Assembly (NCBI GenBank): GCA_017503005.1
Contig: JAFVTW010000022.1
Span: 46,949 to 110,948, forward strand
Reading direction: 5' to 3'
Source of the DNA: Clostridia bacterium
GTDB taxonomy: Bacteria; Bacillota; Clostridia; Christensenellales; UBA1242
Length of the DNA stretch: 64,000 bases
Numbering within the stretch: the first letter of the stretch is position 1; each line of letters starts with the position of its first letter. This document shows positions 5,703 through 14,783 of this stretch, in pieces. Made by a program: the position numbers and the translations under genes. Below the pieces are notes generated by a model that was not told the DNA's origin, made no database searches, and worked only from the letters and a program-made list of their open reading frames with translations.

Positions 5703-7142
5703 ATGGATTACACAAAATTAAGTATTTTAGAATTAGCTAAACTTCTAAGAGAAGGTAAAGTTACTAGTGTAGAGCTTACTAAACAAGTTTTAGCTAAAAT
5801 CAAAGAAAAAGAACATCTTCATGCACTTAATAGTGTAATGGAAGAATATGCTCTAGCTAGAGCTAGCGAAGTTGACCAAATGTTTAGTGAAGGTAAAGAA
5901 TTACCTACACTTGCTGGTATTCCTATCACTATCAAAGACAATATCAACATCAAAGGTTTCAATACTACCTGTTCTAGCAAATTTCTAGAAAACTTCGTAG
6001 CTCCATATAGTGCTACTATTGTAGAAAATCTAGAGAAAAATTATGCTGTAATTGTAGGCAAAAACAATATGGACGAATTTGCTATGGGTTCTTCTACCGA
6101 AAACTCAGCATTTTATCCTTGTCTAAACCCTAGAAACGAAGAATGTGTTCCTGGTGGTAGTAGTGGTGGTAGTGCTGCTGCTGTAGCTGCAGACTTAGGC
6201 TTTGCCAGTGTGGGTACAGATACAGGTGGCTCTGTTAGACAACCAGCTAGTTTGTGTGGTGTAGTAGGTCTAAAACCTACCTATGGTCTAGTATCTCGTT
6301 ATGGTATAGTAGCATTTGCTAGTTCGCTAGACCAAGCAGGTCCTCTAACCAAAACTGTTAAAGATTCTGCTGTTATGCTAAATGCTTTAGCAGGCCACGA
6401 TGCAAAAGAAGAAACTAGTGCAAATGTAGAAAAAGTAGACTATATGGATTCTTTCACAGGTTCTGTAAAGGGTGTAAAAATCGGTCTTATCAAAGAATTC
6501 TTTGGTGAGGGCTTAGACGAAGAAGTAAAGAATGCTATTTTAGATGCTGCAAACTTCTACAAAAGCAAAGGTGCAGAGATTGTAGAAATCAGTATGCCAT
6601 TTGTAGGCAGTGCACTTGCTTGTTATTACATCTTAAGTTCTGCTGAGGCTGCTAGTAACCTATCTAGATTTGATGGTGTAAAATATGGTGTAAGTGTAGA
6701 CGACCCAAAAAATCTAAATGATTTATATCTAAGAAACCGTTCTCAAGGATTTGGTAAAGAAGTTAAGCGCCGTATTATGTTAGGCAACTATGTACTAAGT
6801 AGTGGATACTACGATGCTTATTACAAGAAAGCTAAAAAGGTACAAAGACTATTAGTTCAACAATTTGCAGACACATTTAGTAAATGCGATGTAATCTTGA
6901 GTCCTACTAGTCCTACTGTAGCATTCAAAATAGGCGAAAAGGCAAACGATCCACTAGCTATGTATTTGTCTGATATTTATACTGTTCCTGTAAATATTGC
7001 AGAACTACCTGCTATCAGCATTCCTTGTGGGCTAAACAAAGATAATCTACCTATCGGTATGCAACTAATAGGTAAAAAGTTCTCAGAAAAGACACTATTC
7101 AATGTAGCAGATGTGTTTGAAACTATGAAGGGGGAAAACTAA
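5703..7142 (+). CDS. gatA: Asp/Glu-tRNA amidotransferase subunit A
   Basis: Amidase signature GGSSGGSAAAVA...GTDTGGSVRQPAS. Confidence 0.95.
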   Translation: MDYTKLSILELAKLLREGKVTSVELTKQVLAKIKEKEHLHALNSVMEEYALARASEVDQMFSEGKELPTLAGIPITIKDNINIKGFNTTCSSKFLENFVAPYSATIVENLEKNYAVIVGKNNMDEFAMGSSTENSAFYPCLNPRNEECVPGGSSGGSAAAVAADLGFASVGTDTGGSVRQPASLCGVVGLKPTYGLVSRYGIVAFASSLDQAGPLTKTVKDSAVMLNALAGHDAKEETSANVEKVDYMDSFTGSVKGVKIGLIKEFFGEGLDEEVKNAILDAANFYKSKGAEIVEISMPFVGSALACYYILSSAEAASNLSRFDGVKYGVSVDDPKNLNDLYLRNRSQGFGKEVKRRIMLGNYVLSSGYYDAYYKKAKKVQRLLVQQFADTFSKCDVILSPTSPTVAFKIGEKANDPLAMYLSDIYTVPVNIAELPAISIPCGLNKDNLPIGMQLIGKKFSEKTLFNVADVFETMKGEN

Positions 7143-10934: not shown

Positions 10935-12779
10935 ATGAAAGATTTTGAAGAAAAGAAGTCCATTAAAGGCTTCCATAATTTAAAGAAGTACTTGTGTTAC
11001 TTCAAAAACTACAAATGGTTATGTATAGGGTTTTGGGCATCACTATTAGTTACAGGTGTTATAGGATTTTTTGCACCACTAGCACTAGGTAATGTAATTT
11101 CTAGTATGACTGTTACCCAAGACTTTACTATGGCAGTTACTTTTGCACTTATATATGCAGGCCTTCAATCAGCAGACCAGCTAGTATATATGGCTAGAGT
11201 GCCTTTGTTTAAGAAATTAGAAAACTATGTAAAACGAGATGTTAAAATGGACATCATTAGAGATAGTTTCAATATAAACATAGGCGAATTTGAGAAGCTA
11301 GGCAATGGTGCATTTATTACTAGACTTACAAACGACCTGAATTCTTTGGCTAATAGTTTCAAGTCAATCAGTGAAACTATAGTAAATTTTATGTCTAGAA
11401 TCGGTTTTATTGTATTTGTATTTATAACTAATGTGTGGTTGGGTTTATTCCTTCTTACATTTATTATTATAAGATACTTAGTATATCAAGTAAGAATACA
11501 TTACTTTGCTATTATGAAACCAGGTGTGCTAAAGAAGTCTGAGTATATCAACTCTATGATAGGCGAATCTATCAGAGGTATCAAGGATATCAAAACTTTG
11601 GGTCTTAGCTCAAATATTATAGGTCATGTAAACGAATTACAAGAAGACTTTATGAAAGCAGACAACAAAGAATGGTATGTGGGCTCAGCACTACTAATGC
11701 TTGCTAACTTTGTAAGTATTATTTGTAATTTCTTATTTATAGTATTGTGTATTTATTTGATAGGTTTAGGCAGATTAGATTTGACTATATTCTACTCAGT
11801 ATATGTGTACAAAAACTCTGTCATGGAATTTGCTGTACATTTAGGAAATTTGCAAGACTACTTCAAGGAAATCGAAGTAAATGCATTTAGGGTATTCCAA
11901 CTAGCAAACAACGAAACATACTTACACGATCAATTTGGCAATGTAAGTTTACCAGTATTCAATGGTAATATCGAATTTCAAAATGTAAGCTTCCAGTACG
12001 AAGAAGGCGAAAAAATTCTAGACGATGTTAGCTTCAAAATCTCTAGCAACCAACATATAGCTTTTGTAGGTGAGAGTGGCTGTGGTAAGAGTACTATTGT
12101 GGCACTTATATGTAAATTATACGATCCTACCGATGGTGTAATATTGTTTGACAATACAAACTCTAGAACCTTGTCACAAGACTTTGGTAAACATGTGGCA
12201 ATGGTAAACCAAGCACCATATCTATTCAACCTTACTATTAGAGAAAATATGCAATTAGTAAATAGTCGTGTAACAGACGAAGAAATCTTCCAAGCACTTA
12301 AATTTGCTAATGCTTATGAATTTGTAAAAGATTTGCCTTTAGGATTAGATAGCTTCTTAGGTGAAGGTGGTACTAGATTAAGTGGTGGTCAAAAGCAAAG
12401 AATTTGTATAGCTAGAGCATTACTTAAAAATTCTAAAGTTATCATATTTGACGAAGCTACTAGTGCACTAGACAATATTTCTCAAGAATATGTAATGGAA
12501 TCTATCGAAGAATTAAAGACAGACAAAACAATTATTACTATTGCTCACAGATTATCTACAATCGAAAATTGTGATGTTATATACTTTATAGATCAAGGCA
12601 AAATTATAGACTATGGTACTCACGAGTATCTATTAAAGAACAACAAAAAGTATAGTACTCTATACAACAAACAAAAGAAAGAAGACAAAGAACAAGCTCA
12701 AAAACAAGAAAAATTGCTTAGTGGTGGCGAGGCTGTGGTTACAAATTCTTCTACAGTGAACTTGCTACACGAAAACTAA
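10935..12779 (+). CDS. ABC transporter, fused permease/ATP-binding exporter
   Basis: N-terminal 6-TM domain, Walker A GESGCGKST, signature LSGGQKQR, Walker B IIFDEATSALD. Has a Lys/Glu-rich C-terminal tail. Confidence 0.85.
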   Translation: MKDFEEKKSIKGFHNLKKYLCYFKNYKWLCIGFWASLLVTGVIGFFAPLALGNVISSMTVTQDFTMAVTFALIYAGLQSADQLVYMARVPLFKKLENYVKRDVKMDIIRDSFNINIGEFEKLGNGAFITRLTNDLNSLANSFKSISETIVNFMSRIGFIVFVFITNVWLGLFLLTFIIIRYLVYQVRIHYFAIMKPGVLKKSEYINSMIGESIRGIKDIKTLGLSSNIIGHVNELQEDFMKADNKEWYVGSALLMLANFVSIICNFLFIVLCIYLIGLGRLDLTIFYSVYVYKNSVMEFAVHLGNLQDYFKEIEVNAFRVFQLANNETYLHDQFGNVSLPVFNGNIEFQNVSFQYEEGEKILDDVSFKISSNQHIAFVGESGCGKSTIVALICKLYDPTDGVILFDNTNSRTLSQDFGKHVAMVNQAPYLFNLTIRENMQLVNSRVTDEEIFQALKFANAYEFVKDLPLGLDSFLGEGGTRLSGGQKQRICIARALLKNSKVIIFDEATSALDNISQEYVMESIEELKTDKTIITIAHRLSTIENCDVIYFIDQGKIIDYGTHEYLLKNNKKYSTLYNKQKKEDKEQAQKQEKLLSGGEAVVTNSSTVNLLHEN

Positions 12780-12908
12780 AATATTAAACAGGCACAAAAT
12801 TTGTGTCTGTTTTTCTTTGTGTTGACAACAAATGTGGGATTTTTATCACAAATATTGTCAAAAGATGTAAAAATATAAAAAATTTTTTAAAATTTTGTAA
12901 AATAAGTA

Positions 12909-12937
12909 TTGCATTTTCTAAATCACTAGCATATAAT
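12909..12937 (+). promoter_or_regulatory. sigma-A type promoter of the ncRNA unit
   Basis: TTGCAT (12909-12914), 17-nt spacer, TATAAT (12932-12937). Confidence 0.6.
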
Positions 12938-12943
12938 ACTACT

Positions 12944-13562
12944 ACTAAGGTTAAACACCTTAAGTCACAATATTTGTATCTAGGTGCACAACTGGTTTAC
13001 CCCAGTCCCTAGATAGTGCCGAAAAAGTGGATTGTTCTCGACTGATAGGTTTAGAATAACAGCCATTGTGATAAATGTGAATTTATTACAGAAGTCCAAA
13101 AGACAACTTAAGGCATTAGTGCAACCATACAACTTGATAAGTTAGGCAGATCTATCGCAATCACAATAGACGCTCCGGTGGAGAATAACCCTTACACAGT
13201 TTGGCAGGTAGTGCTGAGAATATGCAGGGGAACACTAATAAGGTTGTTAGACTTGAAGTTGCGAAAGCAATGTATAAGATAGATTGTCGTAAGAGTAGCC
13301 GTATGTCTAGCGAAAGGATATCGCAAAACCCTTCTAAGGTTCTGAATGTTCGGTGAAATTTGGTGGCAACATTCCACTTACTGCATCTGTTATGGGCAAG
13401 AAGTGTAGGGGTCGCTCCCTTATGCTCAGACTTGTTCTCAGTATGAACGAATAATCATTTTGTATGTCATTGTAAGGCGAAGGTCTACAAATATTGTGAC
13501 TTAAGGTGTTTAAACTTGTTTAAGGAAAACAATCTCTAACCAAATCGGTTAGAGTTTTTTTG
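12944..13562 (+). ncRNA. candidate large structured non-coding RNA (~0.6 kb), family unassigned
   Basis: Bounded by a promoter and an intrinsic terminator, with no credible ORF. 12951-12978 is the perfect reverse complement of 13486-13513 (28 bp). The interior is GC-enriched relative to its flanks and contains GNRA-capped hairpins, e.g. ttgc-gaaa-gcaa at 13259-13270. Confidence 0.55.
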
Positions 13563-13567
13563 TTTTT
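13534..13567 (+). terminator. intrinsic terminator of the ncRNA unit
   Basis: Stem ctctaacc/ggttagag, 5-nt loop, then TTTTTTTGTTTTTT. Confidence 0.75.
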
Positions 13568-13667
13568 TAAGCAAAAATTTGCTATGTATATGCAAATAAA
13601 AGTTAAATGAGTTTTAACTTTTAAATTATTGTGGTATGCTAATAAGGTAAATACTGGGGAGGATACT

Positions 13668-14162
13668 ATGGCTACACATAATTATATGTTTGCTCACGAG
13701 CTTATCAAAGTTATCAATTCTAATAAAGATTTCTTTCTAAATACTATAGCTCCAAATCCAAAAAATATGGAGTACTTCATTAGTACAGATGCTCCTAGAA
13801 TTATTTTTAAAGAGTACAATATGCCAGAAATGGTTGTGCCTGTTAAATCTATTACTGGAGATATCAAACAATCTACTGACAAGATTTTGTTGTTTATACA
13901 ATTTGGCGAAGATTTTGTAAACGAATTATTAGATAGCTATGCATTAGCTTTGTCGATTGCTGATAATGGAAATGTTAGACTGTTTACATTTGAAAAAGGT
14001 GCAAGCATTACTGGTGCTGAAATGGGTTTTGTATGTGAATATCGTTATGATAGTTCTCATGTGAACTATGGTGGAATGGCTAATGTGAATATGATGGACT
14101 TCTTTAATCGAGTTGTGGAAGTGTTAAAAGAAGACAGTGGAGAACAAACAGTAGAAGAATAA
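13668..14162 (+). CDS. hypothetical protein (164 aa)
   Basis: ATG preceded by GGGGAGG. No motif recognised. Confidence 0.5.
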   Translation: MATHNYMFAHELIKVINSNKDFFLNTIAPNPKNMEYFISTDAPRIIFKEYNMPEMVVPVKSITGDIKQSTDKILLFIQFGEDFVNELLDSYALALSIADNGNVRLFTFEKGASITGAEMGFVCEYRYDSSHVNYGGMANVNMMDFFNRVVEVLKEDSGEQTVEE

Positions 14163-14192
14163 AATAAAAAGAACTAGCATCGCTAGTTCTTT

Positions 14193-14783
14193 TTATTTGT
14201 TTATTTGATTGTCTATATTTCTAATAGCTCTTTTTTGTGCTACTTGTAGTTTAGGAATATTGTATCGAAGTATACATATAGGTAGAATGTTTAAAAATAG
14301 ATTTACCATACATATAGGTAGTGCGATGTATATACTCATCTTGCCTGGCAGTAGTAGCATATAGCTAAACCCTGCTATCATTCCTGCTATGTGTACAAAT
14401 ATCCCTTTGTTTGACTCTAGCATAAACTGCTCAAAATAAGCAGGATTTGCAGGGTCGTTGATTTTTGCTTTGCTAAATCCTCCTAATCCACCCAGTTCCC
14501 ACACTTTATCCTTCCATTTTTTGATGCCTAGTTTTTCATAGAATAGTTGTTCTTTTTTTGATACTTGATATAATTTTTTATTTGGTGTAAACCAGCTATC
14601 TGGTAGCCACTTGCTTACAACTACGGCAAATATTGCATCTATGCCAAACTGAAATACTACACCTATGACTACTAGGGTGATGACTACTAGTGCACTAGAG
14701 TATATAGTTCCTACACAAAATATGATATTTGGTATGCTGATAAGAATCATTGCTATAAATATAATGGTTAAATATAGTATCAT
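14193..14783 (-). CDS. membrane protein, possibly CrtO-like glycolipid acyltransferase family
   Basis: Polytopic protein with an FYEKLGIKKWKDKV segment recalled from that family. 4-nt overlap with the upstream acyltransferase gene. Confidence 0.4.
   Translation of the reverse strand: MILYLTIIFIAMILISIPNIIFCVGTIYSSALVVITLVVIGVVFQFGIDAIFAVVVSKWLPDSWFTPNKKLYQVSKKEQLFYEKLGIKKWKDKVWELGGLGGFSKAKINDPANPAYFEQFMLESNKGIFVHIAGMIAGFSYMLLLPGKMSIYIALPICMVNLFLNILPICILRYNIPKLQVAQKRAIRNIDNQINK

Follow-up and report, generated by a model that had tools for sequence, protein, structure and literature searches.

A full-length ROOL match points to a stand-alone chromosomal RNA gene beside glyA in an uncultured Clostridia bacterium

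Within a 64,000-nucleotide stretch of the genome of an uncultured Clostridia bacterium (GenBank assembly GCA_017503005.1, contig JAFVTW010000022.1, positions 46,949 to 110,948; hereafter the window), a first-pass annotation made from the letters alone had singled out a noncoding unit of about 0.6 kb as a candidate large ornate RNA and had named ROOL among the classes to which it might belong. With a probability of about 0.9, this unit is a member of the ROOL family (Rfam RF03087) and a stand-alone chromosomal RNA gene. A scan of the whole window with Rfam covariance models, the check that the annotation had proposed, yielded only two matches at gathering thresholds: a tRNA 42 kb away and ROOL at 12956-13505 on the forward strand, with 317 bits against a gathering score of 99.1, an E-value of 4e-72 and coverage of the model from end to end (positions 1-574 of 574). 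In a permissive scan of 12700-13800, no family besides ROOL appeared at E<=1; GOLLD, OLE, HEARO, RNase P, tmRNA, 6S and SRP all lacked a covariance-model match there, which bears out the earlier exclusion of the last four. ROOL is a catalogued and structurally characterised family of large RNAs from bacteria and phages, listed in Rfam as type 'Gene; sRNA', i.e., as a stand-alone RNA gene (RF03087). The class is therefore already known, and the option of a new class, which had been left standing, is withdrawn.

The agreement with the family extends to individual base pairs. Among the 152 model pairs that have residues on both sides in the window, 133 (87%) are canonical, and several of the non-canonical ones, for example around AAG...GCUCAGAC, are likewise non-canonical in the model consensus of the covariance-model alignment. 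The minimum free energy is -176.4 kcal/mol (z = -5.4 relative to shuffled sequences), and the predicted fold includes the closing helix. Counted with this full helix, the RNA measures 571 nt, compared with a family mean of 581 nt (PMC5737381). It shares with ROOL the closing helix P1, a multi-junction architecture, three pseudoknots, a variable linker and a host among the Bacillota, together with the conserved blocks ACAAUAGACG, GUAUAA, UUCUGAAUG, GGUCGCUCC and GCUCAGACUU, and differs in that a small hairpin at model positions ~450-458 is deleted in the window RNA and its clade. GOLLD is similarly a large ornate RNA with an internal variable linker and forms an RNA-only cage (a 14-mer), and as families GOLLD and ROOL have similar genomic habits, GOLLD being associated with phages or prophages and with tRNAs. 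However, its sequence and fold are unrelated to those of the window ROOL.

The ends of the RNA are defined by its closing helix. As the first-pass annotation had stated, positions 12951-12978 and 13486-13513 are exact reverse complements of each other (28 bp), an arrangement whose expected number in shuffles of the window is 0.00. The inverted repeat extends to 32 nt with a single mismatch (97% complementarity), and it is the ROOL closing helix P1, which joins both ends of the RNA. Across the six sequences compared below, the 31 pairs of P1 are 96.8% paired, with three pairs changed on both sides. The intrinsic terminator proposed downstream was recovered by a terminator scanner, and in one strain (contig L004) only its loop (13542, 13545 and 13546) and position 13530 differ, the stem being kept. 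On the other side, the ABC-exporter gene upstream is followed by a terminator of its own, which shields the RNA unit from read-through. Base composition differs in line with the contrast described earlier: G+C is 0.32-0.50 per 60-nt line inside the unit and 0.40 over the RNA, vs 0.117 at 12840-12899 and 0.317 in the window overall. We infer only tentatively an UP-element-like role for this A+T-rich spacer.

Comparative evidence was drawn chiefly from one orthologue. The closest relative is a contig (L138) of the metagenome-assembled genome 'Christensenella sp. UBA6345', which matches the window RNA with 368 bits in nhmmer and the Rfam ROOL model with 312 bits; the only other close lineage in the genome and metagenome scans is this UBA6345 type, represented by four contigs (L138 and three metagenome contigs, L147-L149). 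The window and L138 are 83% identical across the RNA and only 44-50% identical in the flanks, and the conservation boundaries are sharp, starting at the -10 box (CATATAAT) and ending with the 3' arm of P1. When the Rfam pairs were compared between the two sequences, 113 were unchanged, 15 had changed on one side and 13 on both sides with pairing kept, one was broken and four were gained. A second count, over six sequences, took in an extended P1 as well as three pseudoknots and used as controls the same pairs with their 3' partners slid by 1-3 columns. Standard pairs occupied 89.8% of cells in this count vs 36-48% in the slid controls, 14 pairs had changed on both sides vs 0-3, and the covariation score was 0.154 vs 0.013-0.059. 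The 95 substitutions relative to L138 fall 33/33/29 by position modulo 3 (p = 0.84), without codon periodicity. The substitution pattern is thus helix-preserving rather than codon-like, and comparison with this syntenic orthologue shows that the ROOL structure is constrained by helix-preserving evolution.

Table 1. Features of the ROOL locus in the window.
Feature	Coordinates	Strand	Description and basis
ABC exporter gene	10935-12779		Upstream of ROOL; ABC_membrane and ABC_tran domains; open reading frame and domain search
Intrinsic terminator of the ABC-exporter gene	12786-12812	+	12-bp stem, then T-run
A+T-rich spacer	12840-12908	+	Upstream of the -35 box
Putative promoter	12909-12937	+	-35 TTGCAT 12909-12914, 17-nt spacer, -10 TATAAT 12932-12937
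ROOL RNA	12947-13517	+	571 nt including full closing helix P1
P1 5' arm (closing helix)	12947-12978	+	Inverted-repeat search and pair analysis
Hairpin loop UUUACC	12996-13001	+	Position of the env-120 B1 kissing loop (model alignment)
L8 loop UAGUG	13209-13213	+	Pairs with J6/8; family pseudoknot, equal to cryo-EM intermolecular bridge B4
J6/8 CACUA	13233-13237	+	Partner of L8; 5 Watson-Crick pairs
P10 pseudoknot 5' strand UAGAC	13248-13252	+	Sequence and model alignment
Hairpin with GAAA tetraloop	13259-13270 (loop 13263-13266)	+	Aligns to the model's conserved GAAA
P10 pseudoknot 3' strand GUCUA	13305-13309	+	Sequence and model alignment
Variable linker	~13310-13340 (~31 nt)	+	Between P10 and the UUCUGAAUG block; unaligned to model; 10-nt deletion relative to model
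Third pseudoknot, linker-flank strand UCUG	13341-13344	+	Pairs with CAGA in J17/18
L18 loop UCGCU	13412-13416	+	Within GGGGUCGCUCCC; matches consensus GGUcGCUCC
Third pseudoknot, J17/18 strand CAGA	13427-13430	+	Inside conserved GCUCAGACUU
P1 3' arm (closing helix)	13486-13517	+	Inverted-repeat search and pair analysis
Intrinsic terminator	13534-13567	+	8-bp G+C-containing stem 13534-13554, then T-run (scanner)

Several ROOL structures have been solved by cryo-electron microscopy (cryo-EM), and the contacts of one of them, the env-120 nanocage (PDB 9MDS; PMC12286853), were mapped onto the window RNA by using local motif context and the published covariation table; the recovered env-120 sequence is ~9 nt short, and its numbering drifts. 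The complementarity behind intermolecular bridge B4 is present in the window through covarying bases. In env-120 this bridge pairs G307-A310 with U332-C335 and shows significant covariation (PMC12286853); the corresponding L8:J6/8 helix is 96% paired across the six sequences and covaries between loci, reading UAGUG/CACUA in the window, UAGUG/UACUA in L138, UGAGA/UCUCA in a further locus (L127) and GGUA/UACC in env-120. The P10 pseudoknot, which pairs 349-352 with 406-409 in env-120 (PMC12286853), is 100% paired across the six sequences, with a consensus of GCCU/AGGC and CCUC/GAGG in env-120. The third pseudoknot (458-461 with 578-581 in env-120; PMC12286853) is also 100% paired, but its bases are invariant, and hence complementarity only is shown for it.

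Two further contacts of the env-120 cage have counterparts in the window. Bridge B6, a symmetric kissing contact between the half-shells, is made by G565 with C566 (PMC12286853), to which G13414-C13415 of the L18 loop correspond. Bridge B2 is an A-minor contact (G62 with A366) made by the loop G364-A367 (PMC12286853), and the equivalent window loop is the GAAA tetraloop of a hairpin (ttgc-gaaa-gcaa) that had already been picked out by eye; it reads GUAA in the orthologues, so that the GNRA motif is kept. The variable linker is disordered and located inside the cage in the solved ROOL structures (PMC12286853). It occupies the same position in both RNAs, with ~31 nt in the window and 51 nt in env-120, and is the most diverged part of the element relative to L138, the 30-nt bin 13307-13336 holding 16 substitutions, the maximum found.

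Several points weigh against this assignment or against parts of it. The putative promoter was placed correctly by the first-pass annotation as regards its coordinates, its 17-nt spacer and a perfect -10 box, but 'near-consensus' was an overstatement, since the -35 box agrees with TTGACA at only 3 of 6 positions, which is why a consensus scanner omitted the site. Promoter-like sites in this AT-rich region are not enriched either, 12 being found where 10.5 are expected from shuffles. Promoter use, transcript ends and abundance of the RNA are statements that we infer from sequence for an uncultured organism. The covariation evidence comes from two lineages, with strain variants added. With respect to the solved structure, the B1 kissing loop of env-120 pairs A38-C41 with G465-U468 (AAUC/GAUU), and such complementarity is not evident in the window ROOL, where the UUUACC loop and GUUC (13348-13351) do not match; GGUGAAA at 13352-13358 was considered as a substitute partner, which would pair with one bulge, and was rejected because this conserved block is already paired. 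P7 forms a long bulged stem in env-120, making the B3 'daisy chain', whereas the window has a minimal P7 hairpin of 4 bp, with a 3-nt loop and no bulge (CUCC-GGU-GGAG). A model helix joining 13134-13142 to 13448-13458 is poorly paired in the model register (12%); shifted to another register, it forms 11 of 13 pairs. The cage assembly discussed below is a prediction from homology.

These departures have to be read against what defines the family. B1 is a contact of one structure, without covariation annotation in the published table and outside the family definition, and P7 is not always conserved in ROOL (PMC12286853); neither the missing B1 complement, nor the minimal P7, nor the absent hairpin is a defining ROOL feature. 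With regard to the promoter, TTGCAA-17-TATAAT stands equally far from the RNA in L138, and the site becomes credible because this position is kept even though the surrounding sequence is unalignable (~50% identity). Judged from sequence comparison, the conserved offset is the best evidence that the promoter may be real, and transcription is predicted to start near A12944, 3 nt ahead of P1. In L138 (4236-4250) and in L147-L149, a T-run (CTTTTTTTT) directly follows the 3' arm of P1 and there is no separate terminator hairpin; termination in these orthologues may use the ROOL 3' structures themselves.

The genes around the RNA are of a housekeeping kind and encode a YhhN protein, GlyA, the ABC exporter, a 164-aa protein, a CrtO-like acyltransferase, a second acyltransferase, a GT8 glycosyltransferase and a helix-turn-helix (HTH) regulator. 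The order YhhN-glyA-ROOL is kept in the four UBA6345-type contigs, in which glyA is 81% identical at the amino acid level and 75% identical at the DNA level. Beyond the RNA, the UBA6345-type loci differ from the window: the neighbour is an HD-domain gene in the opposite orientation, and the 164-aa gene is absent. Conserved synteny combined with altered immediate neighbours indicates that ROOL is vertically inherited and functionally independent of those neighbours. In the same comparison, the ABC exporter separates glyA from ROOL in the window lineage alone, glyA directly adjoining ROOL in the UBA6345 type, which represents an insertion/deletion difference. The 164-aa reading frame (13668-14162) has a good ribosome-binding site (GGGGAGGA), and exactly the same protein is encoded on seven metagenome contigs; it gave no Pfam or PHROG match. 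A link between this gene and ROOL was considered and rejected, given the lack of such matches and its absence from the orthologous locus.

The window is identical to a 134-kb metagenome scaffold in the European Nucleotide Archive. Three independently assembled Logan contigs (L003, L005 and L006), all carrying the downstream gene, have their first base within ROOL (at 13205, 13207 and 13226 of the window, respectively) and match the window exactly thereafter; these shared starts might arise if the assembly graph branches at the conserved ROOL core, if the 5' half varies among strains or if coverage is low. Elsewhere in the window, a 17-bp perfect palindromic hairpin with A- and T-runs (14162-14198) separates the convergent genes 13668-14162 (+) and 14193-14783 (-) and looks like a bidirectional terminator. 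A 479-aa protein encoded at 5703-7142 shows a full-length match to phrog_29364, of unknown function (E 1.4e-92), and an adjoining 470-aa protein has no PHROG match.

The genomic settings of other ROOL genes were surveyed in viral and genome collections. A first search pattern, ACAATAGACG-N(8-18)-AANAANCC, was too loose in the viral collection, where at least 120 stretches matched and, among the first 120 listed, only about 21 carried the second ROOL block, and a two-block ROOL pattern was used for genome contigs instead, giving 20 genome loci. tRNA genes are present in 29 of the 32 viral ROOL loci scanned, flanking ROOL in most of them and often on both sides within 100 nt, while the 8-kb genome-borne loci hold a tRNA in 4 of 19 cases and none in the other 15. 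The settings usually described for ROOL are a prophage, a tRNA array or a megaplasmid, whereas the window ROOL is chromosomal, tRNA-free and glyA-linked. Streptococcus ROOLs and most Phascolarctobacterium ROOLs also appear to be chromosomal and free of tRNAs, as in the window.

One viral contig (L021, IMGVR_UViG_3300032038_000273; region 1600-2267) combines ROOL and tRNA more closely. It contains a full-length ROOL at 1600-2195 (326.5 bits) in which a tRNA is nested exactly in the variable linker (1955-2026; Rfam 53.1 bits; tRNA-Phe with anticodon GAA according to ARAGORN), and a second tRNA starts 2 nt past the ROOL 3' end. tRNAs in GOLLD linkers have been mentioned by Kretsch et al. (PMC12286853); for ROOL linkers, no such mention was found in the ROOL literature cited here. 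Were a tRNA tethered covalently inside a ROOL cage, this would be relevant to the idea of encapsulation discussed below.

Considering that the 0.57-kb non-coding segment lies between the arms of a perfect 28-bp inverted repeat, the unit could also be taken for a non-autonomous transposable element resembling a miniature inverted-repeat transposable element (MITE), with terminal inverted repeats of 28-32 bp acting as transposase-binding ends, an alternative raised together with the original prediction. This is vanishingly improbable: the arm pair occurs once in the 64 kb even when three mismatches are allowed, the flanks (ACTACTACT and GTTTAAGG) contain no target-site duplication, blastn of the window ROOL against phage and plasmid collections gave no match, and the element occupies the same glyA-linked locus in a second species. 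Moreover, the arms form helix P1 within the full-length ROOL match and have undergone three compensatory pair swaps in the orthologue, i.e., they evolve as an RNA helix, and the presence of one ROOL copy in the window favours an RNA gene. It is hardly conceivable, too, that the interval is a protein-coding or small-peptide locus. Open reading frames of 33-69 aa can be listed in it, including some short internal ones, but every one of the six frames of the unit contains 7-18 stops, and the only frames of at least 60 aa are one that reads in from upstream (12803-13012, 69 aa) and an antisense one (13192-13377), which agrees with the earlier judgment that no plausible coding frame exists. The 69-aa frame begins in the non-conserved spacer and crosses the promoter, and the substitutions relative to L138 have no third-position bias and preserve base pairs.

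The position of the unit on the same strand as the 164-aa gene and 150 nt upstream of it, with a terminator in between as in attenuation systems, might suggest a cis-acting leader, that is, a riboswitch-like 5' untranslated region controlling that gene. Such a role is very improbable, as the orthologous ROOL persists without the 164-aa gene and beside an oppositely oriented neighbour, ROOLs elsewhere have unrelated neighbours (mostly tRNAs), and Rfam classifies the family as a stand-alone RNA gene; in addition, P1 closes the RNA upstream of the terminator, and no alternative terminator pairing is evident. Somewhat more could be said for a ROOL that belongs to a prophage or its remnant and serves the phage rather than the host. 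The literature places ROOL often in prophages and near tRNA arrays (PMC12286853, PMC5737381), tRNAs accompany nearly all of the viral loci surveyed above, and an HTH_3 regulator with phage-repressor-like matches is encoded 3.4 kb downstream of the window ROOL. Even so, this explanation is quite improbable, because the 10 nearest genes include no phage structural, integrase or replication genes, no tRNA lies closer than 42 kb, and the YhhN-glyA synteny in a second species indicates vertical inheritance. Most genome-borne ROOL loci likewise lack tRNAs, and non-prophage ROOLs had already been noted by Weinberg et al. in 2017 (PMC5737381).

With a chromosomal ROOL gene as the preferred reading, a role can be proposed from what is known of its relatives. 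The env-120 ROOL is a homo-octameric cage of D4 symmetry that remains stable at concentrations as low as 12.5 nM (Kretsch et al. 2025, PMC12286853), and two more octamer structures, those of the ROOLs of E. faecalis and Firmicutes bacterium CAG:227 (Ling et al. 2025), are reported in the summary given in PMC12515178. The ROOL of L. salivarius is roughly as abundant as 16S rRNA and is non-essential, as stated in PMC12286853 with reference to Cousin et al. 2017; that long noncoding RNA is very stable, and its deletion caused no significant change in growth (Cousin et al. 2017, PMC5643018). Published suggestions are that the cage encapsulates tRNAs, ribosomal particles or other macromolecules (PMC12286853).

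On this basis, a discrete transcript of ~620 nt would run from the putative promoter to the terminator and, by analogy with L. salivarius ROOL, may accumulate stably. The RNA would fold into a flat ROOL monomer, eight copies of which would assemble without protein into a hollow D4 cage ~28 nm across. Within it, the half-shells would be held by L8:J6/8 kissing (UAGUG/CACUA) together with A-minor contacts, the two half-shells would be joined through the L18 G-C contact, and the variable linker would point into the lumen. By homology to the three ROOLs solved by cryo-EM, the window ROOL probably does form such an octameric cage. Its most likely role is that of a host-maintained, abundant structural or encapsulating RNA rather than a phage accessory, a view favoured by the synteny of the locus across two species and by the lack of phage genes and tRNAs around it. 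It is also imaginable, but unlikely, that the glyA-linked, tRNA-free lineage represents a host-domesticated variant whose quaternary assembly is unlike the published octamer. A different stoichiometry or an open assembly, combined with a host function, comes into consideration because B1 complementarity is missing, P7 is minimal and one hairpin has been lost.

The analysis adds one ROOL gene, from an uncultured low-G+C lineage of the Bacillota, and reveals no new class of RNA. It confirms for this case that such RNAs can be picked out by reading raw sequence, and it supplies naturally occurring versions of the B4, P10 and GNRA contacts whose sequences agree with the cryo-EM models. In this lineage, ROOL is predicted to form a clean, self-contained chromosomal transcription unit, and it is vertically inherited beside glyA. 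Its DNA is conserved above that of the neighbouring glyA (83% vs 75%), which argues that ROOL is under selection in the host and not only in phages.

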